DNA of 64,000 nucleotides, taken from a virus. Position numbers and translations under genes: made by a program. The stretch lies in the IMG/VR virus record IMGVR_UViG_3300042261_000762, positions 1-64,000 of that record; one strand, written 5' to 3'. The first letter of the stretch is position 1. Each line of letters opens with the position of its first letter. Under the pieces are notes generated by a model. The model was not told where the DNA came from. It made no database searches and saw only the letters and a program-made list of their open reading frames with translations. Below, one piece after another: positions 10,142-49,149 of the stretch.

Positions 10142-10178
10142 AAATGGAAAAAATTGACTTTTTTTATAAAATATATAA
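10142..10178 (+). promoter_or_regulatory. conserved promoter block of tRNA array 1
   Basis: AAATGGAAAAAATTGAC-T-run-AATATATAA, repeated before all four leaders. Confidence 0.7.
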
Positions 10179-10226
10179 ACAAGTAACAAAAATTAGAGTA
10201 TAAACAATTACAAAAAAATAGAAATC

Positions 10227-10322
10227 ATGACTTACACCAGTAAACATAGTAAACATTCATCCTTTAGCTCAAAGTGGTTTACCACATTCGGGGTTGAAAC
10301 GGAATTGCTATGTGTAAGCTGA
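10227..10322 (+). CDS. attenuator leader peptide 1 MTYTSKHSKHSSFSSKWFTTFGVETELLCVS
   Basis: 31-codon ORF; codons 5-18 are only S/K/H/F/W; contains antiterminator strand TTCGGGGTT (10287-10295). Confidence 0.85.
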   Translation: MTYTSKHSKHSSFSSKWFTTFGVETELLCVS

Positions 10323-10341
10323 TAATAACATAGTATAACGG

Positions 10342-10379
10342 AAAACCCCGAACTCAAAAAGTTTGGGGTTTTTTATTTT
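10342..10379 (+). terminator. attenuator terminator of array 1
   Basis: AAAACCCCGAAC-tcaaaaa-GTTTGGGGTTTT plus U tract. Confidence 0.85.
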
Positions 10380-10400
10380 ATAGTTCTTTAATATATTCAT

Positions 10401-10483
10401 ACGGCAGCAGGCATTGGTGAGCCAAACAGTCTCCAAAACTGCGACCTGAAAGGGTCCTAAGCGTTCGATTCGTTTCTGCCGTG
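10401..10483 (+). tRNA. tRNA-Trp(CCA), atypical long variable arm
   Basis: Acceptor ACGGCAG/CTGCCGT, loop ct-CCA-aa, extra arm GACC-tgaaag-GGTC. Confidence 0.75.
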
Positions 10484-10566
10484 CTAAGTTCTTTGAAATA
10501 TTGTAGTGTTCAATTCTTCTAAAAATGATTCGAACAATTTAATATATAAATAAAAAAATATATTAT

Positions 10567-11115
10567 ATGAATCAAATTAAAGAAGATATTTTAAGATTGA
10601 GAAATGAAGGAAAATCTTATTCTGAAATCCAGAAAGATTTGAATTGTTCGAAAGGAACTATTTCTTACTATTGTGGCGAAGGTCAAAAAGAAAAGAATAG
10701 GGATAGAACAAGAAAATTGAGAGAAGAAAACATAATGATTAAAAAGATTGATAATTTCAAATCGTTGAGAAATTTTAAAAATATAAAAGAAAGTTTGAGA
10801 AAATTTCAAAAAAGAGATGGAAATGATTACAATAAGAATATAAAAGAAACTTTTAATTGGAGGGATGTTTTAGATAAATTTGGAGAAAATACTTTTTGTT
10901 ACTTATGTGGAGAAGAGGTTAACTTATTTGAAGATACTTATAGTTTCGATCACATAATACCTCAAAGTAGAGGAGGTGATAATAGTTTAGATAATTTGGG
11001 TATCACTATGAAGAAAATAAATGACATGAAAACTGATATGACTCCCGATGAACTAGTGGAAATGTGTATCAAAATCTTAAAATTTAACAATTACAGTGTA
11101 GAAAAACTATTATAG
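10567..11115 (+). CDS. HNH homing endonuclease with N-terminal HTH
   Basis: CYLC...DHIIPQSRGG.N.LDN...N; HTH shared with 28889..29458. Confidence 0.85.
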   Translation: MNQIKEDILRLRNEGKSYSEIQKDLNCSKGTISYYCGEGQKEKNRDRTRKLREENIMIKKIDNFKSLRNFKNIKESLRKFQKRDGNDYNKNIKETFNWRDVLDKFGENTFCYLCGEEVNLFEDTYSFDHIIPQSRGGDNSLDNLGITMKKINDMKTDMTPDELVEMCIKILKFNNYSVEKLL

Positions 11116-11148
11116 TTCATTGACATATTGAAAACCATAAAAGATTAA

Positions 11149-11489
11149 AAGATTAGTTAAGTACCCTATCACATCCCCAATGCTGGGATCTTATAGGCGA
11201 AAATTCAGACTGTAAAGAAAGGCAGTTACTACTGGGCGGGACATAACTACCCGTTTGCGTTATAGTACAGCTAAGGCTATAATGAACTACTCTGCCATCT
11301 TCGGATGCAGGAGGAAGTCTATATTAAGTGTGTAATAACGAACACATCGGTATAGAGAGTCAAAGAAGTTAGTAATCTATGTTTAGATTGATAAATGCGT
11401 TCTATGGTAGATTAGAAGGGTTCGAATCCCTTACGGATTTATTTGACTATACTTGGGACCTTGAAAAGAGGTAGACGTAGGCTAATCTT
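11149..11489 (+). ncRNA. unidentified structured RNA of about 340 nt with an internal T-arm module
   Basis: Ends pair (AAGATTAGTT/GGCTAATCTT); many hairpins (CTG-taaagaaagg-CAG, CATC-ttcg-GATG, AAGGG-ttcgaat-CCCTT); no ORF; follows a boxA. Confidence 0.6.
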
Positions 11490-11496
11490 AATTTAT

Positions 11497-11574
11497 TGTG
11501 GATAAATAGAGCTCAGATCCGATACGCAACGGACACGCCTAGACCTCGGACAGGTTCCGACTCATTTATCCACA
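11497..11574 (+). ncRNA. small structured RNA hairpin
   Basis: TGTGGATAAAT.GAG / CTCATTTATCCACA terminal stem enclosing GC-rich hairpins. Confidence 0.45.
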
Positions 11575-11584
11575 TTTTATACAT

Positions 11585-11660
11585 GGTGTTCGTAGCTTAA
11601 TTGGCATAGAGCACGTCGTTGTGACCGACGCCGGTGAGGGTTCAAATCCCTTCGAACACA
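11585..11660 (+). tRNA. tRNA-His(GTG)
   Basis: G-1, cloverleaf, CGTCG-ttGTGac-CGACG. Confidence 0.9.
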
Positions 11661-11665
11661 CATAT

Positions 11666-11753
11666 GGGAAAGACATCCCTTAGGATAGGGAGATAATCTG
11701 AAAGAGATTATAATCAGCAAAAAACCAATTTGGTTCGAATCCAATCTTTCCCG
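11666..11753 (+). tRNA. degenerate tRNA (Phe GAA-like)
   Basis: Acceptor GGGAAAG/CTTTCCC, T loop TTCGAAT, irregular ctGAAag loop and long variable region. Confidence 0.5.
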
Positions 11754-11759
11754 CTACAT

Positions 11760-11833
11760 GGTGCTATTAGCTCAATCGGTAGAGCGCATGCCTGTGGAGC
11801 ATGAGGCAGTGGGATCGAAACCCACATAGCACC
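11760..11833 (+). tRNA. tRNA-His(GTG)
   Basis: G-1:C73, CATGC-ctGTGga-GCATG. Confidence 0.9.
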
Positions 11834-11899
11834 CAAAAACCGAATGGACTGTTATACTTTCATAGAGTCGGGTAATCAGATGATCGTAGAAAGTAAAAT

Positions 11900-11972
11900 G
11901 GTGCGGTAGCTCAGTAGGTAGAGCAAAGGACTGAAAATCCTTGTGTCGGGGGTTCAATTCCCTCTCGCACCA
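11900..11972 (+). tRNA. tRNA-Phe(GAA)
   Basis: Canonical cloverleaf, AAGGA-ctGAAaa-TCCTT. Confidence 0.95.
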
Positions 11973-11978
11973 CAAAAT

Positions 11979-12051
11979 GACTTCGTAGCTCAGTTGGTAG
12001 AGCACCACACTTTTAATGTGGGAGTCCTGGGTTCGAGTCCCAGCGGGGTCA
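11979..12051 (+). tRNA. tRNA-Lys(TTT)
   Basis: CCACA-ctTTTaa-TGTGG. Confidence 0.95.
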
Positions 12052-12056
12052 CAAAA

Positions 12057-12129
12057 GGATTCTAAGCTAATCTGGTGAAAGCGTAAGTCTGAAGAACTTA
12101 AGAGATTGGTTCGAAACCAATAGAATCCA
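12057..12129 (+). tRNA. tRNA-Phe(GAA)
   Basis: TAAGT-ctGAAga-ACTTA; acceptor GGATTCT/AGAATCC. Confidence 0.85.
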
Positions 12130-12133
12130 CTAA

Positions 12134-12260
12134 AACGGGAGACGGGGGTTCGATTCCCCCCAATCACATATACTCGACGCGTTCTATGGACAGAGTAATG
12201 AGAGTTCGATTCTCTCACGGGCTGAGGTTGATTGTGGCGTAATGGTAGCGTTCCCGCGTT
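12134..12260 (+). ncRNA. circularly permuted tRNA mimic (YrlA-like topology) with a second tRNA-like module nested inside
   Basis: T arm first (GGGG-ttcgatt-CCCC), then CAATCA ... TGATTG acceptor pairing, then D arm GCGTAATGGTAGCG; ends pair AACGGGAG/TTCCCGCGTT. Confidence 0.55.
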
Positions 12261-12343
12261 GGAGACACCCAATGGGAGTGGTTAGGCGTCTCGAAAGCGT
12301 TGAAGTCTGAAAAGATGTGAAGGTTCGACTCCTTCTGTCTCCG
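12261..12343 (+). tRNA. tRNA-Ser(CGA)
   Basis: ctCGAaa loop, long variable arm, G73. Confidence 0.85.
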
Positions 12344-12349
12344 CAAAAT

Positions 12350-12439
12350 GGAAGATAAACCGAACAGGTTAGTCGGCACCGCCTGGAAAGCGAGTGGCTC
12401 TGGGTCAACTGGGGTGAGTTTCGAATACTCTGTCTTCCG
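12350..12439 (+). tRNA. tRNA-Ser(GGA)
   Basis: ctGGAaa loop, long variable arm. Confidence 0.85.
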
Positions 12440-12456
12440 CAATCTGTCTTCCGCAA
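12429..12456 (+). repeat. 14-bp tandem duplication of the tRNA-Ser 3' end
   Basis: TCTGTCTTCCGCAA twice, immediately before the nuclease start codon. Confidence 0.9.
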
Positions 12457-13012
12457 GTGGAAAATAATCATATTTGTCCGAAGTGTGGATTTTATATTAA
12501 TAATAGCATTGACAAACATATAAACTATTGTAAAGGAAAAGGTCCTAGGAGAAGAATTAAGAGAAGAGAAGGAGGTCAAAAGTGGTTACTTGGAAAATCC
12601 TACGATGAATTATATGGAACTGAAAAGTCTAAAGAAATAAGAGAAAAAATATCCAATAATCTAATAGGTAAACCAACAGGAATATGTTCAACTGAAGAAA
12701 GAGAATTAGAAAGAAGAAAAAAAATTAGCGAGAAAATAATAGAAAGATATAAAAACGGTTGGGAAGTTAAATGTGGAAGATGTAAAAAAATAGATTATTA
12801 TAGTGATATAGCAGGAGATATAAAAGTAGATGGAAATTGGGAGTTGGAAGTAGCTAAGTTTTTATGTAGAAGATTGGAATAAATTTATTGAAGTAAAGGG
12901 TTACAAAACTAAATTAGATTATATAAAATGGGAACAATTTAAAGAGAATCTTGAAATATGGGATTCTAATAAATTGAGAGAGTTAGGAATAAAAGCAAAA
13001 TGGCTTAAATAA
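12457..13012 (+). pseudogene. homing endonuclease (NUMOD3-like repeats plus PD-(D/E)xK domain) with internal deletion/frameshift
   Basis: ORF stops at 12882; another frame continues FYVEDWNKFIEVKGYKTKLD...WLK, and the usual YxPD segment is missing. Confidence 0.7.
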
Positions 13013-13014
13013 AT

Positions 13015-13103
13015 GGAGAGTAAACCTAAGCAGTTCTTAGGGCCTGTCTGCTAAACAGAGTGTTCGATTGATATCGAATGTGGGGCGGCACCACTGCTCT
13101 CCG
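13015..13103 (+). tRNA. tRNA-Ser(GCT)
   Basis: CTGT-ctGCTaa-ACAG, long variable arm; atypical T loop. Confidence 0.8.
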
Positions 13104-13113
13104 CAATAATAAT

Positions 13114-13205
13114 GGAAAGAAAACCGATCGGGGTGTCGGCACCGCCTGGAAAGCGAGTGGCTCTGGGTCAACTGGGGTGGGTTTCAATTACTCTTCTTTC
13201 CGCCA
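13114..13205 (+). tRNA. tRNA-Ser(GGA), encoded CCA
   Basis: Central part identical to 12350..12439. Confidence 0.85.
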
Positions 13206-13210
13206 CCAAC

Positions 13211-13296
13211 GGTAGATGATCTGGAGCTGCCTCCAGCCCTGTCTTGAAAACAGTGGGTACGTGAAAGCGTATAGGGATCGACACCTTCTTCTACCG
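13211..13296 (+). tRNA. tRNA-Ser(TGA)
   Basis: CTGT-ctTGAaa-ACAG, variable arm TACG-tgaaag-CGTA. Confidence 0.8.
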
Positions 13297-13375
13297 CTCG
13301 TGTCGCAGATATCGACAGAAACCCCGAAAGGGTGACTAAAAATTCCTATCCGTGCAACTGGGAGGTTGCAAAAAA

Positions 13376-13452
13376 GCGTTCGTAGCTCAGTTGGTAGATT
13401 AAGCACCACTCTTTTAAAGTGGGGGTCGTCGGTTCGAGCCCGACCGGACGCA
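13376..13452 (+). tRNA. tRNA-Lys(TTT)
   Basis: CCACT-ctTTTaa-AGTGG. Confidence 0.9.
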
Positions 13453-13457
13453 CAAAA

Positions 13458-13530
13458 GACCTCGTAGCTCAATTGGCAGAGCTCTTGTCTCTTAAACAAG
13501 AGGTTGTGGGTTCGATTCCCACCGGGGTCA
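13458..13530 (+). tRNA. tRNA-Lys(CTT)
   Basis: CTTGT-ctCTTaa-ACAAG. Confidence 0.95.
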
Positions 13531-13599
13531 CTCGAGGAGACTGTTTGTTATTTTCATAGGACCGCAGATAACACGGGAAGAGTAGAAAATTACATTTAA

Positions 13600-13672
13600 G
13601 GGTTCATAGGTCAATTGGTTAAACTAGTAGACTCTTAATCTACGGCTCTGGGTTCGAATCCCAGTGAACCCA
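13600..13672 (+). tRNA. tRNA-Lys(CTT)
   Basis: GTAGA-ctCTTaa-TCTAC. Confidence 0.9.
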
Positions 13673-13689
13673 CAAAAAATAATATAGAA

Positions 13690-14409
13690 ATGAAATATCT
13701 TATAGGCATACAACCAACAGGCAAACTCCATATAGGTAACTATCTTGGATGCTTAGCCAAGGGACTTAGACTTCAAAAATCTGGTCACGATGTTACTTTT
13801 TTAATAGCTAATTATCATTCAATGACTACAGGTTCATATACTGATATAACAGAAAAAGAATTAAAAAGATTAGGATGTAAAAATGTAAAACGCCAAACAC
13901 CAGAATATACTGAAAAGTTCTTTGAATTGTGTTGTAAAATGAATATAGGACAGCTTCTTAAAATGCCACAATATAAGGATAAAAAAGAAAAGGTTGAATA
14001 TGATTTAGGATTACTTTTATATCCAGTGCTTATGGCAGCAGATATTATAATAAATGATCCAGATGTTATTATAATAGGAGCAGATCAAGTTGCACACATT
14101 GAATTGACAAATGATATAGTAAAAAGAATAGGAATAGATAAACATTTTGAATATGAATATGGTGATGTAGACAAGATAATGTCTTTAATAGATCCAACCA
14201 TTAAAATGTCAAAATCATCTGGAGAAAAACACGTTCTTTATATATTCGATGAAGATTATGTAGCGAAACTTAAAAAAGCCAATTCCAACGAAGAAGGATT
14301 GAATAATCTAAGAAAAATCGGAGATTACTTCAATGTTGAAAGAAATGATAGTAATTTGAAATATAAATTGGATATAGCGAAAGTTTTAATTGATGAATTT
14401 AATCAATAG
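13690..14409 (+). CDS. trpS: tryptophanyl-tRNA synthetase, compact (239 aa)
   Basis: GIQPTGKLHIGNYLG, YPVLMAADI, GADQ..H.ELT, KIMSL.DP..KMSKS. Confidence 0.92.
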   Translation: MKYLIGIQPTGKLHIGNYLGCLAKGLRLQKSGHDVTFLIANYHSMTTGSYTDITEKELKRLGCKNVKRQTPEYTEKFFELCCKMNIGQLLKMPQYKDKKEKVEYDLGLLLYPVLMAADIIINDPDVIIIGADQVAHIELTNDIVKRIGIDKHFEYEYGDVDKIMSLIDPTIKMSKSSGEKHVLYIFDEDYVAKLKKANSNEEGLNNLRKIGDYFNVERNDSNLKYKLDIAKVLIDEFNQ

Positions 14410-14480
14410 GGATCATAGGTTAATTGGTAAACTAGTAGACTTTTAATCTACGGCTCCGGGTTCGACCCCCGGTGATCCCA
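14409..14480 (+). tRNA. tRNA-Lys(TTT)
   Basis: GTAGA-ctTTTaa-TCTAC; starts on the last base of the trpS stop codon. Confidence 0.9.
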
Positions 14481-14485
14481 CACAC

Positions 14486-14557
14486 ACGTCTATGGTATAA
14501 TGCGTAGCACAAATGCCTCCAAAACATTTAGTCAGGGTTCGAATCCTTGTAGGCGTA
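14486..14557 (+). tRNA. tRNA-Trp(CCA)
   Basis: ctCCAaa loop, acceptor ACGTCTA/TAGGCGT. Confidence 0.85.
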
Positions 14558-14580
14558 CAAAATATAAAACAATATAAAAA

Positions 14581-15201
14581 ATGGACATAGATAAACAAGT
14601 TAGAGGAACTAGAATTATTCTGGAAGAAGCAAAGGAAAGAAGAATAATTCTTAATAAACTCATAGATATTGCAAATGATTATGGTTTTCAAGAAATCACT
14701 TTACCTAGTTTAGAATTATCTGAAATTTACGTAGATAAAGCGGGTGAAGAAATTCTAAATCAAATGTACACATTTAAAGACAAAGGAGATAGAAATCTAT
14801 GTCTTAGACCAGAAGGAACAGCAACAATTCAATTATTGGCTAATAAATATTGGAAAACGCAAAAAGATATTAAACTTTGGTATTTTGAAAAATGTTGGAG
14901 ATATGAAAGACCACAATCGGGAAGATATAGAGAGTTTTATCAATTTGGTGTTGAATGGTTAAATCCAAGAGAAGATGTAACTCCTACATTGATTGAAATG
15001 GCTAAAAAGATGATAGAAACTAAAACAAATGAATATACTATTTCTGAATCTGTTAAAAGAGGATTATCATATTACACAGGAGGAGTTGGTTTTGAAATTT
15101 CTGTAGATAAATTAGGTGCTCAAAAACAAGTTTGCGGAGGAGGATCATATAAAGAAGGAATAGGATTTGCTTTGGGGTTCGATAGATTAATGTTATGTTA
15201 A
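14581..15201 (+). CDS. hisS: histidyl-tRNA synthetase, catalytic core only (206 aa)
   Basis: MYTFKDKGDRNLCLRPEGTA, RYERPQSGRYREFYQFG, RGLSYYTG, GFALGFDRL; no C-terminal anticodon-binding domain. Confidence 0.88.
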   Translation: MDIDKQVRGTRIILEEAKERRIILNKLIDIANDYGFQEITLPSLELSEIYVDKAGEEILNQMYTFKDKGDRNLCLRPEGTATIQLLANKYWKTQKDIKLWYFEKCWRYERPQSGRYREFYQFGVEWLNPREDVTPTLIEMAKKMIETKTNEYTISESVKRGLSYYTGGVGFEISVDKLGAQKQVCGGGSYKEGIGFALGFDRLMLC

Positions 15202-17078: not shown

Positions 17079-17525
17079 ATGAATAAGATAAACATAAAAA
17101 ATAAGAAAGCATTTTTCAATTATGAAGTAATTGAAAAAGAAACAGCTGGTATAGTATTAGTAGGAACTGAAGTTAAATCTATAATATCAGGAAATATTAG
17201 TTTTACTGATGCTTATTGTGATTTTGTCAACGACGAATTGTGGTTGAAAAATTTTCATATAAGCGAGTATGATAAAGCTCTTGATAATCATGAAACTAAG
17301 AGAGATCGTAAACTTTTGTTAACCAAAAATCAATTGAATAAATTTAGAAAAAAATTCGAAGAAAAAGGGTTAACAATAGTACCTCTTGTTATATTTACTA
17401 ATCCTAAAGGACTTATCAAAATGGACATAGCTCTTGTTAGAGGGAAAAAGCAATATGATAAAAGAAATTCTATAAAGGAGAAGGATATTGATAGAGAAGT
17501 TAATATGAAAATTAAAAATTATTGA
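17079..17525 (+). CDS. smpB: SsrA-binding protein SmpB
   Basis: NKKAFFNYE, AGIVLVGTEVKS, RDRKLLL, GKKQYDKR. Confidence 0.97.
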   Translation: MNKINIKNKKAFFNYEVIEKETAGIVLVGTEVKSIISGNISFTDAYCDFVNDELWLKNFHISEYDKALDNHETKRDRKLLLTKNQLNKFRKKFEEKGLTIVPLVIFTNPKGLIKMDIALVRGKKQYDKRNSIKEKDIDREVNMKIKNY

Positions 17526-23588: not shown

Positions 23589-24059
23589 ATGAGCAAGTTA
23601 TTTAGATTTTCTAATTTTAAGGTTAACGAAAACGTTGATGGTTTATATCAGACTATAAAAGATATAATAGAACATTATCAACAGAAAATAGGAGCAAAAG
23701 ATTGGTTTGATTTTGCAGGTAAAGGAAAGTGGTACCATCATTTTAAGAATGATTTATGGTTAAACTTTATAGAAAATAAAGACGAAGCAGCCAAGAATAT
23801 AATAGATACAGCTAGAAGAGCAGGAATTGACATAGATAGTAGAGCAGAAAACCACGAAAGAGGAGAAGATTTAGTAATTCATCAAATAAAAGTATTGTTA
23901 TATAAAAATAGACAAAAAGATATAGATACAACAGTACAAGAAATAGTAAAATTATTAAACAACGATATAAAAGTACAGTGGAGAAGTTCAGCTTTTAATA
24001 CATATAGAAATCAAGAAATGGGCGAAGATAGAGATATAAACCTTGAAGACGCCTATTAA
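23589..24059 (+). CDS. hypothetical protein (CTS-like N-terminus)
   Basis: MSKLFRFSNFKVNE. Confidence 0.7.
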   Translation: MSKLFRFSNFKVNENVDGLYQTIKDIIEHYQQKIGAKDWFDFAGKGKWYHHFKNDLWLNFIENKDEAAKNIIDTARRAGIDIDSRAENHERGEDLVIHQIKVLLYKNRQKDIDTTVQEIVKLLNNDIKVQWRSSAFNTYRNQEMGEDRDINLEDAY

Positions 24060-24126
24060 AATGGAAAAAATACAATATTTTTATAAAATATATAAACAAA
24101 ACAACAATTATACGATATATAAAATT

Positions 24127-24204
24127 ATGAATAACATTTTACATAACAACTTACTGAACCTATTACTCCTCTTGGGGATAATTGGATTGGGTGTGTTATG
24201 CTAA
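24127..24204 (+). CDS. attenuator leader peptide 2 MNNILHNNLLNLLLLLGIIGLGVLC
   Basis: 10 of 25 codons are Leu, using five different Leu codons; antiterminator GGATTGGGT at 24184-24192. Confidence 0.88.
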   Translation: MNNILHNNLLNLLLLLGIIGLGVLC

Positions 24205-24679: not shown

Positions 24680-24685
24680 TTCAAT

Positions 24686-24769
24686 GCGGATATGGCGGAA
24701 TTGGTAGACGCGCCACTTTGAGGGGGTGGTGCCCGCAAGGGCGTAGGGGTTCGAGTCCCCTTATCCGCA
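24686..24769 (+). tRNA. tRNA-Leu(GAG)
   Basis: Canonical, long variable arm. Confidence 0.95.
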
Positions 24770-24776
24770 CAAAAAA

Positions 24777-27671: not shown

Positions 27672-27803
27672 TTTTCAAAAAAAGTTTGAAATAATTTTTT
27701 TAATAAGCAAACTTTTAGTAATTTTGTCGTATAAATAATGAGAGTAAAATCTCAAAATGGAAAAAATTGACATTTTTGATTAAATATATAAGGAAGTAAG
27801 AAT

Positions 27804-27872
27804 ATGAAAAACATGGTTTATAATATTAATGATTGTATTTATAATGATAAGCGTAAAATGCTGATTGGATGA
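27804..27872 (+). CDS. attenuator leader peptide 3 MKNMVYNINDCIYNDKRKMLIG
   Basis: Codons 6-15 are only Y/N/I/D/C; antiterminator CTGATTGG at 27861-27868. Confidence 0.85.
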   Translation: MKNMVYNINDCIYNDKRKMLIG

Positions 27873-28081: not shown

Positions 28082-28462
28082 ATGAAATTAAAAATGGAAA
28101 ATATAAAAGATTTCGCCGAAAAATTAGCAAATCTTACCGTATTAGAATGTTATCAATTGGCGAAGATAATGAAGGAACAATATGGTATAGAACCACAAAC
28201 AAAAGTTCTGGGAGTAAATATTTCTCCTGTTCCTATAAAGGTTGAAAAAACAAATTTTGATGTGATATTAAAATCTGTTGGAACAAGTAATAAATTAACA
28301 CTTGTTAAAACTTTGAAAGAAATGATGGGAAATAGTTTAATGGAAGCAAAAACATTAGTTGATAACGCTCCAAGCAAACTTAAGGAAAATGTGGGTAAAG
28401 AAGAAGCAACCGCACTTGAAGCTTCTCTAAAAGAAATAGGTGCAGAAATAGAAGTTCTTTGA
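28082..28462 (+). CDS. rplL: ribosomal protein bL12 (L7/L12)
   Basis: LTVLE...L...MKEQYGI, EKTNFDVILK, LMEAKTLVDNAP..LKE.V.KEEA..L...L.E.GAEIE. Confidence 0.93.
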   Translation: MKLKMENIKDFAEKLANLTVLECYQLAKIMKEQYGIEPQTKVLGVNISPVPIKVEKTNFDVILKSVGTSNKLTLVKTLKEMMGNSLMEAKTLVDNAPSKLKENVGKEEATALEASLKEIGAEIEVL

Positions 28463-28512
28463 TAGAATGTAAATATTAACAATAAAAGCCACCTTATGGA
28501 GAGGTGGCAAAC

Positions 28513-28587
28513 GGGTGTGTAGCTCAGTTGGTTTAGAGCATCTGTCTGATACACAGAAGGTCGAAGATTCGAGTTCTTCCATACCCA
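28513..28587 (+). tRNA. tRNA-Ile(GAT)
   Basis: TCTGT-ctGATac-ACAGA; identical copy at 29449. Confidence 0.9.
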
Positions 28588-28641
28588 CTGCAGACTGTTA
28601 AAATTTCATAGGCAGCAAATGGAGCGTAGAAATTTACAAAT

Positions 28642-28708
28642 GCCGACGAGCGGGGACAAGCCAGGTCTGTAAAACCTTTGCTAGGGGGTTCGATACCCTC
28701 CGGCGGCA
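28642..28708 (+). tRNA. tRNA-Tyr(GTA), very short (67 nt; reduced D arm, no variable arm)
   Basis: AGGT-ctGTAaa-ACCT, T loop TTCGATA. Confidence 0.7.
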
Positions 28709-28741
28709 CAAAAAAAGAAGTTCTTTAAAATATTGAAAAAT

Positions 28742-28814
28742 GGTAGTGTGTCCGAGTGGCTTTAGGTATTTGTCTGCAAAACAAACTACGGGGGTTCGAA
28801 TCCCTCCACTACCT
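28742..28814 (+). tRNA. tRNA-Cys(GCA)
   Basis: TTTGT-ctGCAaa-ACAAA, U73. Confidence 0.92.
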
Positions 28815-28888
28815 CAAAAATGTTCTTTGAAATCGTGATTTTTTGACTATAAAACTTTTATATATATAATAAAAAAATATAAAATATT

Positions 28889-29458
28889 ATGGTTAAATAT
28901 AAAGATGATATATTAAGATTGCGTGAAAGTGGTCTTTCTTATAATGAAATATCTAAAGAAATAGGATGTTCAAAAGCTTTAATATCGTATCATTGTAAAA
29001 GATATTCTCTCAGTGATATAGGTTTAAGTAATACTAATATAAATGAAAAAGAAAATGAAATAAAAGAGTATTATAAAGATCATTCCAAAAAAGAAACAGC
29101 AGATTTTTTCAAAATATCTGAATCTTCAGTTATTAGGTACTCTGATAAAAAAAGAATAATATTGGATGATAATGAAAGAAAAAAAAGAAATTACATTAGA
29201 GTTTCTAACTTTAGGCAAAGATTAAAAGAAAGAGCAATAGAATATAAAGGCGGAAAATGTGAAATATGTGGATATGATAAATGTAAAAGATCATTAGATT
29301 TTCACCATAGAGATCCAAATGAAAAAGATTTTGGGATAGGGCATTCTAAAGTTCTTAATTGGGATAAAATCAAAAAAGAATTAGATAAATGCGATCTTGT
29401 ATGTAGAAATTGTCACGGTGAAATTCACGATGAATGGGATAAAAATAGGGGTGTGTAG
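28889..29458 (+). CDS. HNH homing endonuclease with N-terminal HTH
   Basis: CEICGY...LDFHHRDP...CDLVCRNCHGEIH; its stop codon lies inside the following tRNA-Ile. Confidence 0.88.
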   Translation: MVKYKDDILRLRESGLSYNEISKEIGCSKALISYHCKRYSLSDIGLSNTNINEKENEIKEYYKDHSKKETADFFKISESSVIRYSDKKRIILDDNERKKRNYIRVSNFRQRLKERAIEYKGGKCEICGYDKCKRSLDFHHRDPNEKDFGIGHSKVLNWDKIKKELDKCDLVCRNCHGEIHDEWDKNRGV

Positions 29459-29523
29459 CTCAGTTGGTTTAGAGCATCTGTCTGATACACAGAAGGTCGA
29501 AGATTCGAGTTCTTCCATACCCA
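29449..29523 (+). tRNA. tRNA-Ile(GAT), duplicate
   Basis: Identical to 28513..28587. Confidence 0.9.
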
Positions 29524-29555
29524 CAATAAAGTTCTTAAAAATAGTTTGACATAAT

Positions 29556-29632
29556 GGACTCAGGGTCTGCTTGGCGTGGACGTCTCCCTGTCACGGAGTA
29601 CAATCAGGAGGGTTCGATTCCCTTTGGGTCCG
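29556..29632 (+). tRNA. tRNA-Asp(GTC)
   Basis: CTCC-ctGTCac-GGAG, G73. Confidence 0.85.
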
Positions 29633-29638
29633 CAAAAT

Positions 29639-29712
29639 GTCTCAGTAGCTACAATGGTTAGAGCGTCTGCCTGTTAAGCAGAGGGTTATAGGTTCGAATC
29701 CTATCTGGGGCG
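29639..29712 (+). tRNA. tRNA-Asn(GTT)
   Basis: TCTGC-ctGTTaa-GCAGA. Confidence 0.92.
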
Positions 29713-29747
29713 CATAAATATTGTTCTTTGAAAGTTTGAAAAATATT

Positions 29748-30664
29748 GACTTTGTTTGGGAAGTTTCTCACCTTCGGGTGGGTAAAGAATAATACATCGC
29801 AAGGTGTAAAAGAGAGGGATGGTCACATACCTCTACCACAATCCTTCGGGAAAGTGGCTCAACCAAACAAGCATCGTCCTACCGTAGCCAACTACGGTCT
29901 TCGATCACCAGTCGGAGATAGGATGTAAGAACGGAACTGGTCCTTTGGAAAGGATAAGTGAGGTAAGCCCCCAGCCGCAAGGTTGGGTAAGGAGCCTCAC
30001 TAATTAGGGAGTGACGCCCCGCCGCCAGTTGGTCAACCGTTCGTTGTCGGAAGGGATAAGGTGTAGTTAATCTGTTCGAGCATACCAACGCAAGGGCTAA
30101 TTAACAGTTCAATAGGTGAAAGGTTTTGAAACTGTAAAAGGGGAATGAACCTGGAGTCTAGAAGAATCGCACAGTAAGGCTAGTAACCTGAAACGTATGT
30201 GTGTGTAGTGCATTTTGTACCTCAAAAGGGTATAGACCACATGAGTGGGCACCACGCGGTGACAAACAGCAAATTTGCTCAGCTGGTAGAGCAATTCTCT
30301 CTTAAAGAATAGGTCGTTGGTTCAAATCCAACATTTGTTTAAAGGAAAGTCCCACTCAACGGTAAGCTGAAAGACGTTTAATTCTTGGCACCGCAAGGTG
30401 AACCAAGAACTCGGAAGGTCCCAAGCTGGAAGAGTTTAGTTGAAAGATGCACCTAATGGTTTAGCGACCATGAACTGCTCGCAAGGCAGGGGGTAATCAG
30501 ATAGCTGAATAGGTTTATCGGTAAAAGTTGAGCCACCAACTCAAAAAGGGCAACGTTGTCGGTAAACAGTCTTGGTGACTGTGGACAAGTTGAGAACCTC
30601 AGAATGGGAATTTTGAGGATAATGCAACAAAGGTATCGACGTCAAGGATGTAGTCTCAGTCCTT
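29748..30664 (+). ncRNA. GOLLD-like giant non-coding RNA containing a tRNA
   Basis: About 900-nt GC-rich stretch with no credible ORF, many GCAA/TTCG-capped hairpins, terminal AAGGA-TGTAGTCTCAG-TCCTT, inside a tRNA array with an embedded tRNA as described for GOLLD. Confidence 0.7.
30268..30340 (+). tRNA. tRNA-Lys(CTT) embedded in the GOLLD-like RNA
   Basis: ATTCT-ctCTTaa-AGAAT; flanked by the GAGTGGG/CCCACTC stem. Confidence 0.8.
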
Positions 30665-30671
30665 TATATAT

Positions 30672-30748
30672 GGCTCCTTAGCTCAGTTGGTTAGAGCATC
30701 TGACTGTTAATCAGAGGGTCCCAGGTTCGAGCCCTGGAGGAGCCGCCA
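30672..30748 (+). tRNA. tRNA-Asn(GTT), encoded CCA
   Basis: Canonical cloverleaf. Confidence 0.95.
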
Positions 30749-30768
30749 AACTTAAAAAATGAAAGGAA

Positions 30769-30890
30769 TGACATAAAATCAATTTGGATAATGGAAACCC
30801 AGCCTGTCTCACTAGCAAGGAAATGAAAGTCCGAATCTTTCTCCGCCAGACTCAAGGAATGGTGTGTGGGTAAAAGCCAAATGATTGTCA
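30769..30890 (+). ncRNA. unidentified structured RNA (about 120 nt)
   Basis: TGACA..AATCA.TTTGG / CCAAA.TGATT.GTCA closure and ACCCA/TGGGT inner stem. Confidence 0.4.
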
Positions 30891-30916
30891 AAAGAGTGTA
30901 ACGAATAAAGAAATAA

Positions 30917-30977
30917 AGAATACTTACAGCAAATTAAAAAACGTGAACTGTAAATTCAACAAAAAGAAAGTATTCTG
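30917..30977 (+). ncRNA. TTACAGCAA-clamp RNA presenting an isolated Tyr(GTA) anticodon arm
   Basis: AGAATACTT-ACAGCAA ... TGAA-ctGTAaa-TTCA ... AAGTATTCT. Confidence 0.55.
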
Positions 30978-31067
30978 TTCTTTGAATTATTGAAGTGAAT
31001 TGAAAAGATGTTACCAACCAACGCCCTCACAGGTGAAACTACAGTGTACAATCGCGATTCACTAAAT

Positions 31068-31153
31068 GGAGATACGATCCGTATGGGAAACGGAGTGGGC
31101 CGTGTGAGGTTCATCAAATCAATGTTAGTATGGTTCAAATCCTACTATCTCCA
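31068..31153 (+). tRNA. degenerate tRNA-like element, anticodon unclear
   Basis: Acceptor GGAGATA/TATCTCC-A, T loop TTCAAAT. Confidence 0.45.
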
Positions 31154-31158
31154 CAAAA

Positions 31159-31238
31159 GGGAGTATTGCATAGTGGCAATTGCTGGGGACTGTAAATCCC
31201 TTCCTTCGGGTTCGGTGGTTCGAGTCCATCTACTCCCA
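31159..31238 (+). tRNA. tRNA-Tyr(GTA)
   Basis: GGGGA-ctGTAaa-TCCCT, variable arm CC-ttcg-GG. Confidence 0.95.
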
Positions 31239-31246
31239 CAAAAAAT

Positions 31247-31320
31247 GGTCTGGTCGTTCAGCTGGTTAGGATGCCGCCCTGTCACGGCGGAGGTCGCGGG
31301 TTCGAGTCCCGTCCAGACCG
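31247..31320 (+). tRNA. tRNA-Asp(GTC)
   Basis: Canonical cloverleaf. Confidence 0.96.
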
Positions 31321-31445
31321 CAAATAGTGTCTCCAACACATTCACGTAAACTATCGGTTGTGTGGGCGAAAAATACCGAACACTATTAATCTTATGTCAA
31401 AAGCATAAGTCACATTGTAATAAACGCGAATAAAATCAATGTGTT

Positions 31446-31518
31446 GGTGCTGAAGTACAATTGGACGTGCACCGCCAGAACGGGGCGGGGGCTGTAGGTT
31501 CGAATCCTGCCAGTGCCA
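31446..31518 (+). tRNA. tRNA-like gene with a non-canonical anticodon loop (agAACgg, no U33)
   Basis: Good acceptor, D and T arms; CCGCC/GGCGG stem. Confidence 0.55.
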
Positions 31519-31690
31519 CTAAAAATGAAATAAAAACAATGAAAGGAATAGTATCATGATGATCTACAACTACAACATAATATCCGCACGGGATGCAATA
31601 TATCTATTCCTTTTATAAAGGAAAGCATAATTATAGGTATAGACGATCCCACAAAGATCGTCTTTTTTTTATAAAAAAAAATATCAAGAT

Positions 31691-45355: not shown

Positions 45356-45671
45356 AATCAAATGCTCAGAGATTAGGTGTGTTTTTATCAATTTTAACAA
45401 TAATTGTATGTGGAATTATTGGTGGAATGTTATGGTGCAAGATTTTTAGATTTTTGTAAAGGACACCCATATTGGATTTCTTCATGGATTTTGATTCTTC
45501 TTATTTTTGTAAATCCAGAAACATCTTATGATTTTTATAAAAAAATCAGTTATTTTTTTAGAATAATTTTTTAATTAAGCAAACTTTTTGTAATTTTGTA
45601 GTACAAATTAAGAAATGGAAAAAATTGACATTTTTTGGTTAATATATAACAAAGTATAAAAATTAAATATT

Positions 45672-45752
45672 ATGAACTTTCGAATAGAGAATATGATACA
45701 AGAACAGATGCAACAGATGGATAATCTGATTGGATGGACTATATCGTATTGA
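45672..45752 (+). CDS. attenuator leader peptide 4 MNFRIENMIQEQMQQMDNLIGWTISY
   Basis: 11 of codons 5-16 are I(ATA)/E/M/Q; antiterminator TCTGATTGG at 45725-45733. Confidence 0.87.
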   Translation: MNFRIENMIQEQMQQMDNLIGWTISY

Positions 45753-45820: not shown

Positions 45821-45891
45821 GCTCCTATCGTCTAAAGGAAGGATTCGACTTTTTCACAGTCGGGATGCGGTCTCGGGATCCGCTGGGAGTA
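45821..45891 (+). tRNA. tRNA-Glu(TTC), atypical T loop
   Basis: CGACT-ttTTCac-AGTCG. Confidence 0.75.
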
Positions 45892-45930
45892 CAAAAGATT
45901 AAGTTCTTTGACATATTGGGAATAAATTAT

Positions 45931-46055
45931 AGGGAGGTAGTGTAATGGCTAGCACGACGTAATTCAACAAAAGTATTTTGACAAAAATATTTACAGCAAA
46001 TCAAAAGAAGAGGCATCATAAGCCGTATGTGGATGTTCGAATCATCCCCTCCCAA
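45931..46055 (+). tRNA. tRNA-Met(CAT)-like gene interrupted by an insert of about 50 nt carrying the TTACAGCAA motif
   Basis: Acceptor GGGAGG/CCTCCC, D arm, insert, GGC-atCATaa-GCC, T arm GGATG-ttcgaat-CATCC. Confidence 0.6.
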
Positions 46056-46136
46056 CAAATTGAGAAATGGACTCATCATTCCGAATTTAAACGGTCACAA
46101 AAAATTCCATTGACAGTCTGGAAAGACAGACGACAT

Positions 46137-46218
46137 AGCAACGTGCCGGAGTGGTCTATCGGGGATGTCTCATAAGCATCTGGCTTTGCCTTCGTGGGTT
46201 CAAACCCCACCGTTGCTA
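46137..46218 (+). tRNA. tRNA-Met/Ile2(CAT) with an extra variable arm
   Basis: GATGT-ctCATaa-GCATC, GGC-ttt-GCC arm. Confidence 0.85.
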
Positions 46219-46223
46219 CACAT

Positions 46224-46306
46224 CGCGGGGTCGAGTAGATGGCCCAGCTATCTGGTCTCCAGGTCTCCCCAAAAGGGAGTCGTAGGTTCGAATCCTACCC
46301 CCGCTA
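46224..46306 (+). tRNA. initiator-type tRNA body with a remodelled D/anticodon region (pseudo-tRNA)
   Basis: CGCGGGG/CCCCGCT acceptor and T arm intact; no CAT loop. Confidence 0.5.
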
Positions 46307-46320
46307 CTAAAAACAAACAT

Positions 46321-46396
46321 GGCCTCCTAGTGTAATGGTTGAGCATTTCTCCCTTTGAAGGAGCGGGTATTGGTTCGAATCCAGTGGGGGCTGCCA
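46321..46396 (+). tRNA. tRNA-Gln(TTG), encoded CCA
   Basis: CTCC-ctTTGaa-GGAG. Confidence 0.88.
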
Positions 46397-46399
46397 AAT

Positions 46400-46470
46400 T
46401 GTTCTTTGGTGTAACGGGAGCATAAGTGACTCTGAATCACTCAGTCCTGGTTCGAATCCAGGAAGAACAA
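46400..46470 (+). tRNA. tRNA-Gln(CTG)
   Basis: AGTGA-ctCTGaa-TCACT. Confidence 0.9.
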
Positions 46471-46493
46471 CAACAAAAATAGGAGATAAAAAT

Positions 46494-46751
46494 ATGAAAG
46501 GTATTACATTTAAAATCAACGGAGAACTTTCAGAAGAAGGTAAAAAGAAACTTCTGAAACACATTGAGGAAGGTAGAAAAAAAATGGAAGCCAGAATTGA
46601 AAAGTATAGAAAATACTTCGATCTTTTAGAAAAAATGAATAAAGATAATAGACACGAAGACTTCATTTATTTAGAGAATGGTAAACATTATATAGTATCT
46701 TGGGACAGTGGGAAATGGTCAGATCCGAGAGAAATTACATTTTTGGAATAA
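46494..46751 (+). CDS. hypothetical protein
   Basis: ORF track. Confidence 0.7.
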   Translation: MKGITFKINGELSEEGKKKLLKHIEEGRKKMEARIEKYRKYFDLLEKMNKDNRHEDFIYLENGKHYIVSWDSGKWSDPREITFLE

Positions 46752-47020
46752 ACTTAAAAAACGAACCTCGAACTTTTTATACATTAGAAACACATTGTAG
46801 AGGAAATCTAATAATTGAAAGAATAGAAGAAAAAATAAAACAAAAACAAAAGAACTTCATACATGGTTTTATGTTAAGAAGGAAAGTAGAGAGACCAACT
46901 TATGAAAAACTAATTGACGAGATAGAAAATCTTGGACTAGAGGGAGTTGGTAGAAAATATGGAGTAACTGGTAAAGCGATTAAAAAATGGGTTATTACAT
47001 ATCAAAAATATAATATATAA
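46700..47020 (+). CDS. HTH-tail fragment typical of homing endonucleases (start uncertain)
   Basis: RRKVERPTYEKL...VGRKYGVTGKAIKKW. Confidence 0.45.
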   Translation: MGQWEMVRSERNYIFGINLKNEPRTFYTLETHCRGNLIIERIEEKIKQKQKNFIHGFMLRRKVERPTYEKLIDEIENLGLEGVGRKYGVTGKAIKKWVITYQKYNI

Positions 47021-47025
47021 TGTAT

Positions 47026-47101
47026 TGATCATTAGCGCAATTGGTAGAGCGTTGGGTTTTGGTCCCAAAGGTTGGAGGTTCGAACCCTCCATGATCAACC
47101 A
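47026..47101 (+). tRNA. tRNA-Gln(TTG), encoded CCA
   Basis: TTGGG-ttTTGgt-CCCAA, U1-A72. Confidence 0.9.
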
Positions 47102-47113
47102 AAGTTTTTTATT

Positions 47114-47635
47114 ATGAAGAAATTATTTACTATATTATTCATTATTATATCATTCTGTCTAAACGCCCAAACAAAGGGAACTTTCACAGATAATCGTGAC
47201 AATAAAACCTACAGATGGATAAAAATAGGCGAACAAGTTTGGATGAGGGATAATCTAAAATATAAAGATACAATATTTTATGATTATAAATCTGAAAAAA
47301 AGAATGATACATTAAAACTAGTTGCTTCTTGTCCAGATGGATGGCATCTACCAACACTAATAGAATGGAATCAATTGTTTACTACTCTTGGAAGAGTAAA
47401 TGCTGCTAATAGATTGCAAGAAGAAAATAGTTTTGATTGTTTATTGAATGGTAGATATAATGCTGATATAAAATCAGTTGAAAATAGAGGAACACATGCA
47501 TATTACTGGACTTCGACTGTTAGAGATGAAAATACAATGTGGACAATATTTATATTTTATGGTTCTGGAATGACAAGTAAAATAGATGGTGATAAGAGAT
47601 ATGGTTATTCTATAAGATGTATAAAAGATAAATAA
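47114..47635 (+). CDS. secreted Fibrobacter succinogenes major paralogous (FISUMP) domain protein
   Basis: Signal peptide, FTDNRDNKTY..IKIGEQVWM..NL, CPDGWHLPT..EW, GYSIRCIKD; start reassigned. Confidence 0.85.
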   Translation: MKKLFTILFIIISFCLNAQTKGTFTDNRDNKTYRWIKIGEQVWMRDNLKYKDTIFYDYKSEKKNDTLKLVASCPDGWHLPTLIEWNQLFTTLGRVNAANRLQEENSFDCLLNGRYNADIKSVENRGTHAYYWTSTVRDENTMWTIFIFYGSGMTSKIDGDKRYGYSIRCIKDK

Positions 47636-47717
47636 TTTTCCTGAAATTTTTTTAATTCGTAAATAAGTCGTATTTTTGTATTGTTAAATCAGTTCATTGA
47701 ATTATTGAAAAATATAT

Positions 47718-47791
47718 GGCGGGGTAGAGCAGAAGAAGCTCGTCGGGCTCATAATCCGAAGGTCGTGGTTGAGCATTTCCCACCCCCGCAA
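47718..47791 (+). tRNA. tRNA-Met(CAT), aberrant T loop
   Basis: TCGGG-ctCATaa-TCCGA. Confidence 0.75.
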
Positions 47792-47796
47792 CACAT

Positions 47797-47871
47797 CGCG
47801 GGATGGAGCAGAGGTAGCTCGCAAGGCTCATAACCTTGAGGCCGAGGGTTCGATCCCCTCTCCCGCAACCA
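47797..47871 (+). tRNA. tRNA-fMet(CAT), encoded CCA
   Basis: C1xA72 mismatch, CAAGG-ctCATaa-CCTTG. Confidence 0.92.
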
Positions 47872-47874
47872 AAT

Positions 47875-47947
47875 GGTCTCGTAGCTCAGGGGTGAGAGCA
47901 GGAAGCTTATACCTTCAAGGTCGGTGGTTCAATTCCATCCGGGACTA
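47875..47947 (+). tRNA. tRNA-Ile(TAT)
   Basis: GAAG-ctTATac-CTTC. Confidence 0.88.
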
Positions 47948-47957
47948 CAAATAAAAC

Positions 47958-48031
47958 TGGAGTGTAACTCAGTTGGTTAGAGTTCGAAGCTTATACCTTC
48001 GCGGTCGGGGGTTCAAGTCCCTCCACTCCAA
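47958..48031 (+). tRNA. tRNA-Ile(TAT)
   Basis: CGAAG-ctTATac-CTTCG. Confidence 0.88.
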
Positions 48032-48035
48032 CAAT

Positions 48036-48155
48036 AGATAGTAAACCAGCTTCCCTATTCGCGACGGTGCCTATCCTACAAGGCCGGAACCATTAGCACC
48101 CGAGGGAACAATTAAGGTGGGAAGGGCGAGTCTCCCAATCTAACTGGAACTATCT
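48036..48155 (+). ncRNA. unidentified structured RNA (about 120 nt)
   Basis: AGATAGT..CCAG / CTGG.ACTATCT closure; TTCCCT/AGGGAA, GGTGC/GCACC and TGGGA/TCCCA stems. Confidence 0.5.
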
Positions 48156-48191
48156 TAAATTTTAATAAATAAATCAAAAAAACAACTAAAT

Positions 48192-48416
48192 ATGAAGATT
48201 CTCAGAAAAGGTGACGATTTCGTCAAAATGAATGACGCTACTGTTCAGGACATTGCGAAAATTGAAGATAAGATTAAAGATGGTTGGAAGTATTCTCCAA
48301 AGAAAGATTACAAGGATTTTTATAAAGCCGAAAAGACAGCGACAGAAGTAAAGACCGAAGAGAAGAAAGAGAAGAAGGCAAAGGAAAAGAAAGAAAAAAA
48401 TAAGAATAAAAAATAA
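48192..48416 (+). CDS. small Lys/Glu-rich protein
   Basis: ORF track. Confidence 0.7.
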   Translation: MKILRKGDDFVKMNDATVQDIAKIEDKIKDGWKYSPKKDYKDFYKAEKTATEVKTEEKKEKKAKEKKEKNKNKK

Positions 48417-48437
48417 TATATATCCATAAAAATTATT

Positions 48438-48983
48438 ATGTATAAGATAATTGTAAAAGGACCAGCTGGCGAATCAAATGTTTCTGATAGAAAAAAATTA
48501 GACGGCATTGATTGTCAGGACGAATTCTCTGAATATTTTCATGAAGCTTGGAATATAGGGGGAAAAGAAGATAGAAATCAGCAGAATTTGATTGATAAAG
48601 GAGTATCCGGTGGTTATATGAGGTTCGAATATGAACACAATAAACTATACGTAATAGTTGAGTATAATTCCGATGAAAAATTAAACGATGATGAAATCGA
48701 AGAGTTGAAAGACTACACCCAAGGTCAACTTTCCGACGGTATTGGTGAGGGATTTGAACAACAACCAGTCATGTATGAGAACGATAAAGAAATTTTTATA
48801 TCTCCCTGGTTTAGAGGACAAAAACTAAAAGTTGAACAAATTGAAGATGATACAATTGAACCAAAAAAGAAAGTCGCTGAAGATGATAATACATATTGGG
48901 AAGACCAATGTAAAAAAGATATAGAAAAAATGAACGCTTTAATGGACGAATTAAAAAAACTCCTCGATAAAGATAAAAAATAA
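48438..48983 (+). CDS. hypothetical protein (GQLSDGIGEGFEQ motif)
   Basis: ORF track. Confidence 0.75.
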   Translation: MYKIIVKGPAGESNVSDRKKLDGIDCQDEFSEYFHEAWNIGGKEDRNQQNLIDKGVSGGYMRFEYEHNKLYVIVEYNSDEKLNDDEIEELKDYTQGQLSDGIGEGFEQQPVMYENDKEIFISPWFRGQKLKVEQIEDDTIEPKKKVAEDDNTYWEDQCKKDIEKMNALMDELKKLLDKDKK

Positions 48984-48989
48984 CTAAAC

Positions 48990-49064
48990 GCTCCTGTCGT
49001 CTAATCGGTTAGGACATCGCCCTTTCACGGCGAAGATTTGCGGGTTCGAGTCCCGTCGGGAGTA
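48990..49064 (+). tRNA. tRNA-Glu(TTC)
   Basis: TCGCC-ctTTCac-GGCGA. Confidence 0.95.
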
Positions 49065-49076
49065 CAAAAAATTTAC

Positions 49077-49149
49077 CGCCCTATCGACTAACAGGCTAGG
49101 TCACCGCTCTCTCACAGCGGAAATTCGGAATCGTACTCCGATAGGGTGA
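49077..49149 (+). tRNA. tRNA-Glu(CTC)
   Basis: CCGCT-ctCTCac-AGCGG. Confidence 0.85.

Follow-up and report, generated by a model that had tools for sequence, protein, structure and literature searches.

The window analyzed in this work, a stretch of 64,000 nucleotides comprising positions 1–64,000 of the IMG/VR virus record IMGVR_UViG_3300042261_000762 (whole contig 104,107 bp), carries four arrays of transfer RNA (tRNA) genes sorted by amino acid, each standing behind a short open reading frame (ORF) rich in the codons that its own tRNAs read and behind an intrinsic terminator. Each of these units would be a multivalent, ribosome-mediated (leader-peptide) attenuator that feeds tRNA supply back onto the transcription of tRNA, aminoacyl-tRNA synthetase and L7/L12 genes, a reading to which we assign a probability of roughly 0.8. 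All of the evidence is computational. The attenuator had been proposed in an initial annotation of the window, and every sequence-level prediction of it that could be tested held, as a short ORF, cognate codons, an intrinsic terminator and an alternative pairing that an advanced ribosome would mask are all present.

The phage is probably a giant one of the Bacteroidota type, and the elements probably act in Bacteroidota. Its nearest public genome is LR756501.1, which we compared together with LR745206.1, LR756502.1 and several IMG/VR contigs. LR756501.1 is a Mahaphage genome of 735 kb, and the three named relatives are the Mahaphage genomes of 735, 634, and 642 kb with predicted Bacteroidetes hosts (Al-Shayeb et al. 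2020, PMC7162821).

Leader ORFs and the tRNA arrays behind them

The four units start at positions 10142, 24059, 27755, and 45613, each ahead of its own array, and share one order of parts that was obtained directly from motif matches, ARAGORN and a terminator scan, in agreement with the initial annotation: a promoter-like block, an ORF of 22–31 codons, a strong hairpin followed by a T-run, and the tRNA genes. The first tRNA gene follows straight after the terminator in units 1 and 4, with one small gene in between in units 2 and 3. ARAGORN finds 40 tRNA genes in the window, 38 of them on the plus strand in the four sorted arrays, and no tRNA genes in the rest of the contig. The blocks, leaders and arrays are as follows.

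10142..10178 (+): promoter-like block of unit 1, AAATGGAAAAAA..AATATATAA, exact motif match; the same block is found in LR756501.1 without ATG
24059..24095 (+): promoter-like block of unit 2, exact motif match
27755..27791 (+): promoter-like block of unit 3, exact motif match
45613..45649 (+): promoter-like block of unit 4, exact motif match
10227..10322 (+): leader ORF 1, 31 codons, control run SKHSKHSSFSSKWF
24127..24204 (+): leader ORF 2, 25 codons, control run LLNLLLLL, using five of the six Leu codons
27804..27872 (+): leader ORF 3, 22 codons, control run VYNINDCIYNDK
45672..45752 (+): leader ORF 4, 26 codons, control run IENMIQEQMQQM
10401..14558 (+): array 1, tRNAs for W,H,H,F,K,F,S,K,K,K,K,W (ARAGORN)
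12350-12440, 13015-13104, 13114-13205, 13211-13297 (+): four further tRNA-Ser genes in array 1
24686-27255 (+): array 2, six tRNAs for Leu, five of them at 24686-25088 (ARAGORN)
28513-31519 (+): array 3, tRNAs for I,C,I,D,N,K,N,Y,D,V (ARAGORN)
45821..49150 (+): array 4, tRNAs for E,M,Q,Q,Q,M,I(UAU),I(UAU),E,E (ARAGORN)
45931-46055, 47718-47791 (+): further tRNAs with CAU anticodon in array 4 (Rfam)

The lengths of the four ORFs and the control runs quoted for them in the initial annotation are correct. Two of the additional tRNA-Ser genes carry a GGA anticodon and were called by ARAGORN with relaxed settings, while the other two are type-II cloverleaf folds with GCU and UGA anticodons. By decoding class, array 3 covers mainly split boxes of the NNY kind, decoded by G34 tRNAs (Y,N,D,C,I), and array 4 NNR split boxes (Q,E,M,I-AUA).

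That the control codons match the cargo is borne out by counting the leader codons decodable by the anticodons of each array under standard wobble rules. The true pairing of leaders and arrays decodes 45 of 100 codons, against no more than 30 for each of the other 23 assignments, and it comes first among all 24 permutations for the window and among all 120 for each of LR756501.1, LR745206.1 and LR756502.1, so that a leader's own array comes out on top in four genomes. Using the phage's own codon usage as the background in a binomial test of the sensing zone, the tRNAs of array 1 read 14 of 17 codons in leader 1 (p = 5e-7), and cargo matches account for 8 of 15 codons in the sensing part of leader 2 (p = 4e-6), 13 of 15 in leader 3 (p = 1.5e-5) and 11 of 15 in leader 4 (p = 2.7e-6). 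When the additional tRNA-Ser genes are included, none of the six Ser codons in leader 1 is left uncovered. In two relatives, all six Leu codons occur in the Leu leader (p about 7e-4 and 0.003), and a test of codon diversity as a measure of isoacceptor sampling gives an overall P of 0.0018, driven by the Leu leader.

The block ahead of each leader is equally regular. Its 12-mer AAATGGAAAAAA has four exact matches, at 10142, 24059, 27755, and 45613, one before each array, and the extended form GAAAAAA..AC.TTTT..ATATATA occurs exactly four times in the 104,107-bp contig, on the plus strand every time. An interpretation of the block as a mini-ORF (MEKID..) was rejected: its ATG is gone in two of the LR756501.1 units, and we therefore take it to be a DNA motif. 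Since a degenerate copy precedes a csp gene that has no leader, and since in LR745206.1 the block alone, again without a leader, precedes an initiator tRNA, it is best read as a promoter. The strict Bacteroidota promoter pattern TTTG-N17-23-TAnnTTTG has three matches in the contig, none of them beside the leaders; the TAnnTTTG part alone lies upstream of units 1, 3, and 4, and the full motif is found in units of the LR745206 type. A hydrophobic ORF of 23 codons (10086-10157, plus strand) ends within the block of unit 1, and LR756501.1 has a similar small membrane-type ORF at the matching position.

Terminators, antiterminators and the proposed switch

The four leader terminators have fold z-scores from −4.3 to −5.7, and the plus strand of the contig holds about 12 such strong terminators in total. 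Within each of the four ORFs lies a perfect complement of 8–9 nucleotides to the 5′ arm of the terminator that follows (shuffle p 0.0005–0.0045), as the initial annotation had said.

10343..10379 (+): intrinsic terminator 1, hairpin and T-run, supported by fold z-score
24232..24266 (+): intrinsic terminator 2, hairpin and T-run, supported by fold z-score
27895..27929 (+): intrinsic terminator 3, hairpin and T-run, supported by fold z-score
45777..45815 (+): intrinsic terminator 4, hairpin and T-run, supported by fold z-score
10287..10295 (+): antiterminator strand 1, TTCGGGGTT, complement of the 5′ arm of terminator 1, shuffle p = 0.0005
24184..24192 (+): antiterminator strand 2, GGATTGGGT, complement of the 5′ arm of terminator 2
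27861..27868 (+): antiterminator strand 3, CTGATTGG, immediately ahead of the stop codon, complement of the 5′ arm of terminator 3
45725..45733 (+): antiterminator strand 4, TCTGATTGG, complement of the 5′ arm of terminator 4

The mean duplex energy of a leader with its own terminator arm is −14.1 kcal/mol, compared to −9.1 kcal/mol with arms other than its own (permutation P ≤ 5e-5), which makes the complementarity specific to each leader's own terminator. One case of the covariation expected among related huge phages is also seen, in that a C-G pair of the unit 2 antiterminator is an A-T pair in the comparison with LR756501.1, with both strands changed in a compensatory manner.

We simulated co-transcriptional folding of leader RNA as far as the 5′ arm of its terminator, with a ribosome represented by a mask of 30 nucleotides. 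The 5′ arm forms a duplex with the ORF segment upstream of it (P 0.6–0.9) until the ribosomal A site moves beyond the last control codon; this pairing then falls to 0–0.3. The pattern is seen in about 17 of 19 leaders. The modeled switch point, as given directly by these simulations, sits at the end of each control-codon run, and cargo codons are enriched in the sensing zone (170/315 vs. 60/216, Fisher p = 2e-9). In full-equilibrium folds with the whole terminator and a masked ribosome, leaders 1 and 2 (in the window and in LR756501.1) and that of one relative flip, exactly over the control codons. A thermodynamic switch was dropped as a general claim, the equilibrium flip being confined to these leaders.

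In the mechanism that we propose, transcription would begin at the conserved block and the short leader would be translated by a ribosome. With the A site on or before the control run, the downstream segment of the ORF would be free to pair with the emerging 5′ arm of the terminator, and this antiterminator would allow RNA polymerase to read into the tRNA genes and those for leucyl-tRNA synthetase (LeuRS), the TrpRS-like and HisRS-like proteins, L7/L12 and the GOLLD RNA. Fast decoding of the control codons would bring the ribosome over the antiterminator strand, upon which the terminator hairpin would form and transcription would stop; slow decoding of the cargo-cognate codons would hold the ribosome upstream, and the operon would be transcribed. 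Because the control codons are those read by the tRNAs behind the terminator, the supply of an operon's own products would feed back on that operon. The supply sensed would be the charged tRNA of host and phage together, giving negative feedback on tRNA synthesis. We infer here the translation of the leader, the coupling of transcription and translation in a Bacteroidota host, the response of read-through to decoding speed and the natural trigger, for which codon-usage mismatch early in infection, starvation, anticodon nucleases and simple feedback are candidates.

Several results weigh against this mechanism. The match at the level of codons (isoacceptors) is significant for the Leu leaders only, and several leaders contain codons foreign to their cargo (Leu leaders have Asn, leader 1 has Thr and some relatives have Ser); no Asn tRNA that would explain the Asn codons of the Leu leaders is detectable in array 2. 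The perfect complement to the terminator arm is only 4–6 nucleotides long in 5 of the 19 leaders. With the whole terminator present, equilibrium folding keeps most leaders terminated at every ribosome position, and the switch would therefore have to be kinetic and co-transcriptional, as it is in classical attenuators. Lastly, a partial transcript free of ribosomes already prefers the antiterminator, unlike that of E. coli trp.

This last preference means that a loss of translation should open all of the operons, as would suit units that respond to translation capacity in general (the availability of ribosomes, shut-off of the host or toxins that target ribosomes) and have a cargo-like composition only as a secondary trait. 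General translation genes are indeed found in the operons (L7/L12) and nearby (EF-G and SmpB). We nevertheless consider such a general sensor unlikely, as it leaves unexplained both the pile-up of cargo codons in the sensing zone and the tracking by leader composition of a leader's own cargo, which is seen in at least 10 groupings across phages.

Leaders and cargo in related phages, and known attenuators

The co-variation of leaders and arrays across phages is a direct observation. LR756501.1 has the same four arrays and four leaders as the window, and its leaders have diverged in the flanking residues, with the control runs remaining in the alphabet of the cargo (SSFSS vs. FSSSS). A further leader rich in Ala, Arg, Gly, Pro, Thr, and Val, predicted from the tRNAs missing in the window, is present in LR756501.1: ahead of a fifth array of R,R,R,T,T,T,V,V,A,A,G,G,G,R,P (locus 356000-371000, minus strand) stand the same block and a leader of 42 codons with a core of T, P, A, V, R, and G and an antiterminator complement of 10 nucleotides. 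The fifth array corresponds to GC-rich family boxes; phages of the LR745206 type group their tRNAs differently.

A pull from IMG/VR with the AT-rich promoter pattern returned 116 loci, mostly irrelevant, with about 6 true relatives; searches for related loci returned one locus with LeuRS as the query and no match with L7/L12. In the distant relatives with regrouped cargo (LR745206.1, LR756502.1 and IMG/VR contigs) the leaders are regrouped as well, bearing out the expected correlation between leader composition and the downstream tRNA set. A PVNPQPQDQDP leader precedes a P,D,Q array, a T/M/N/L/V/I/R leader precedes exactly that set of tRNAs, an SSRSRSS leader precedes an R,S array and an IEAIGYAYEAG leader precedes an array of E,Y,I(UAU),G,A; likewise H,F,W,K tRNAs follow an H/K/F/W leader, a pure K,F array follows KGFKKFFKK, and seven tRNA-Leu genes and LeuRS follow a Leu leader with all six Leu codons. 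Judged by these sequences, it is the composition of the leader and not its sequence that is conserved, and composition tracks cargo even under other groupings of amino acids. The leader ORFs also stay in frame across relatives, as had been predicted, with an in-frame indel of 6 nucleotides in an alignment of five leaders of the H/K/F/W type. Initiator-type tRNA genes (C1 opposite A72) have promoters and no leader, which fits a sensor acting through elongating ribosomes since these cannot sense initiator tRNA.

Could the promoter, small ORF and terminator be unrelated neighbors, for example with the terminator belonging to an upstream gene, and the match be due to chance? Codons for K, N, I, F, and Y are abundant in AT-rich genomes, and the sorting of tRNA genes by type can arise from tandem duplication alone. 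The permutation, binomial and complement-shuffle tests and the comparison of own-arm duplexes nonetheless contradict a chance origin, as do the recurrence of the arrangement in at least 5 phages with changed cargo and the presence of a leader of GC-rich codons before an array for GC-rich codons, so that we regard coincidence as extremely improbable.

A switch set by a protein or by direct binding of tRNA (TRAP-, PyrR-, or T-box-like), to which the small ORF would be incidental, would draw on the fact that an antiterminator and a terminator exist whatever reads them, translation of the leader being itself a prediction. Such binding is very unlikely in our view, given that the ORFs are in frame with in-frame indels, that composition rather than sequence is kept and follows the cargo, and that the interval 9900-49400 has no match to a T-box, a known leader family or another cis-regulatory Rfam family at E ≤ 0.5. 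By their sequence, the units are not T-boxes.

Ribosome-mediated attenuation has well-known precedents among enterobacterial leaders, including the multivalent thr (Thr and Ile) and ilvGMEDA (Ile, Leu, and Val) attenuators as well as trp, his, leu, and pheA. Like the thr and ilvGMEDA leaders, the units described here have a short leader with many regulatory codons, an antiterminator and a terminator that exclude each other, several amino acids per leader and an outcome that would be decided by ribosome position. Unlike them, they are encoded by a phage, carry tRNA genes rather than biosynthetic enzymes as cargo, address 5–7 amino acids per leader, and have the antiterminator strand inside the ORF with no clear general 1:2 “protector” pairing. 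In E. coli, the pheM leader of pheST uses cognate codons to control an aminoacyl-tRNA synthetase by attenuation. Unit 2, in which a Leu leader precedes LeuRS, would be its direct analog, except that the synthetase here lies behind the cognate tRNA genes in one operon. T-box riboswitches also sense tRNA status and switch a terminator and antiterminator ahead of synthetase genes, and they do so without translation, through direct contact of a specifier codon and the T-box sequence with uncharged tRNA; in contrast, the units have no T-box match and one leader reads many codons.

The nearest case of an accessory tRNA array expressed on demand when translation is impaired is the trn operon of Anabaena, a long tRNA array that is described as silent until translation is stressed (PMC8421152). 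Its control is attributed to a protein repressor, TrcR, in a later report (PMC10272220). This differs from the control proposed here, and wording on attenuators, leaders or terminators is absent from the available portion of the 2021 paper (PMC8421152). The tRNA and synthetase repertoires of huge phages, those of the clade treated here included, have been catalogued with no mention of leaders or attenuation in the part of the text consulted (Al-Shayeb et al. 2020, PMC7162821). The initial annotation knew of no description of multi-amino-acid attenuators over phage tRNA arrays, and none was found in the literature searched, nor was any of leader-peptide control of tRNA genes. Leader attenuation in the style of the trp operon, applied to tRNA genes, appears new in that we could not find it described.

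On a wider scale, we think it fairly likely that phages of the Mahaphage clade possess a modular sensor that monitors the tRNA pool through multiple channels. In it, each operon would be autoregulated by a leader that samples the codons of its own cargo (every isoacceptor in the case of Leu), and would top up only those tRNAs, synthetases and ribosomal components that limit the translation of AT-rich genes or are destroyed by host anticodon nucleases; this would be the first leader-peptide attenuation of tRNA genes. If true, this would reveal how huge phages control the translation machinery that they carry, a point left open by the 2020 catalogue, and would extend leader-peptide attenuation to non-coding cargo and to 5–7 amino acids per sensor. 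The units would then provide compact, ready-made sensors of codon-specific decoding speed for Bacteroidota, the text of a leader would predict the content of its operon and so aid the annotation of huge-phage genomes, and the on-demand deployment of phage tRNAs under codon-usage mismatch, starvation or anticodon-nuclease defense would become directly testable.

Operon cargo and neighboring genes

Besides tRNA genes, the operons hold the features listed here, of which the L7/L12 gene, the GOLLD RNA and the endonuclease-like ORFs with HNH or HTH domains go beyond the initial annotation.

13690-14409 (+): TrpRS-like gene in array 1, 239 aa, short form, below the family cut-off
14581..15201 (+): HisRS-like gene, 206 aa, N-terminal catalytic part alone, below the family cut-off
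25099-26658 (+): LeuRS gene in array 2, TIGR00396 at 570.5 bits vs. an equivalog cut-off of 548.4
24579-24668 (+): odd tRNA-like element at the start of array 2, Rfam tRNA at 35.6 bits, oversized loop in the anticodon region
28082..31519 (+): operon 3, with L7/L12 gene, tRNAs and GOLLD RNA
28082-28462 (+): L7/L12 gene of operon 3
30199-30662 (+): GOLLD RNA (RF02032), full length, 163.4 bits vs. a cut-off of 150
31641..31671 (+): terminator closing operon 3 (terminator scan)
10567-11115 (+): ORF with HNH and HTH domains (Pfam) among the tRNA genes of array 1
12457-12882 (+): ORF without family match, Cys-rich motif seen by eye
28889-29458 (+): ORF with HTH domain (Pfam) among the tRNA genes of operon 3

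The synthetase cargo named by the initial annotation stands for LeuRS, which scores above the TIGR00396 cut-off, and not for full forms of TrpRS and HisRS, each of them a short form below its cut-off. LeuRS has 519 aa compared to the 843 positions of the model and probably lacks the editing (CP1) and C-terminal domains. The Leu operon similarly holds as five tRNA-Leu genes and LeuRS behind leader 2. The sixth tRNA-Leu (UAA), at 27171, is probably not under leader 2 because a separate terminator at 26945-26966 precedes it. Ahead of this gene, within 27000-27170 (+), are a promoter-like TAtaTTTG motif and about 130 nucleotides of GC-rich sequence, which may be structured; no leader ORF or Rfam match was found in that interval. 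The odd tRNA-like element of array 2 is enclosed by a long-range stem, AGATTGCTT / AAGCAATCT (24545-24685), and is also present in LR756501.1.

In operon 3, the GOLLD RNA encloses a tRNA-Lys(CUU) at 30268-30340, and from its position it would be co-transcribed under leader 3, which has an AAG codon. The CAU element of array 4 at 45931-46055 is a tRNA-like gene of 125 nucleotides that has CAU in its anticodon loop and about 55 nucleotides inserted between the D and anticodon arms, and is kept in the 735-kb relative. The three ORFs at 10567-11115, 12457-12882 and 28889-29458 may be mobile insertions resembling homing endonucleases.

Around the arrays lies an island of translation-related genes on the plus strand, with SmpB (17079-17525), a CspE-like cold-shock gene (26734-26922), the L7/L12 gene of operon 3, EF-G (33273-35300) and an RNA ligase (35297-35944); no transfer-messenger RNA gene was called by ARAGORN. 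The nearby ligase hints at tRNA repair, without proving it. Outside the arrays, two tRNA-like genes on the minus strand (6450-6732) follow a TAnnTTTG motif and have neither leader nor attenuator, and one of the pair has a 4-nucleotide “anticodon” call in a loop of 8 nucleotides.

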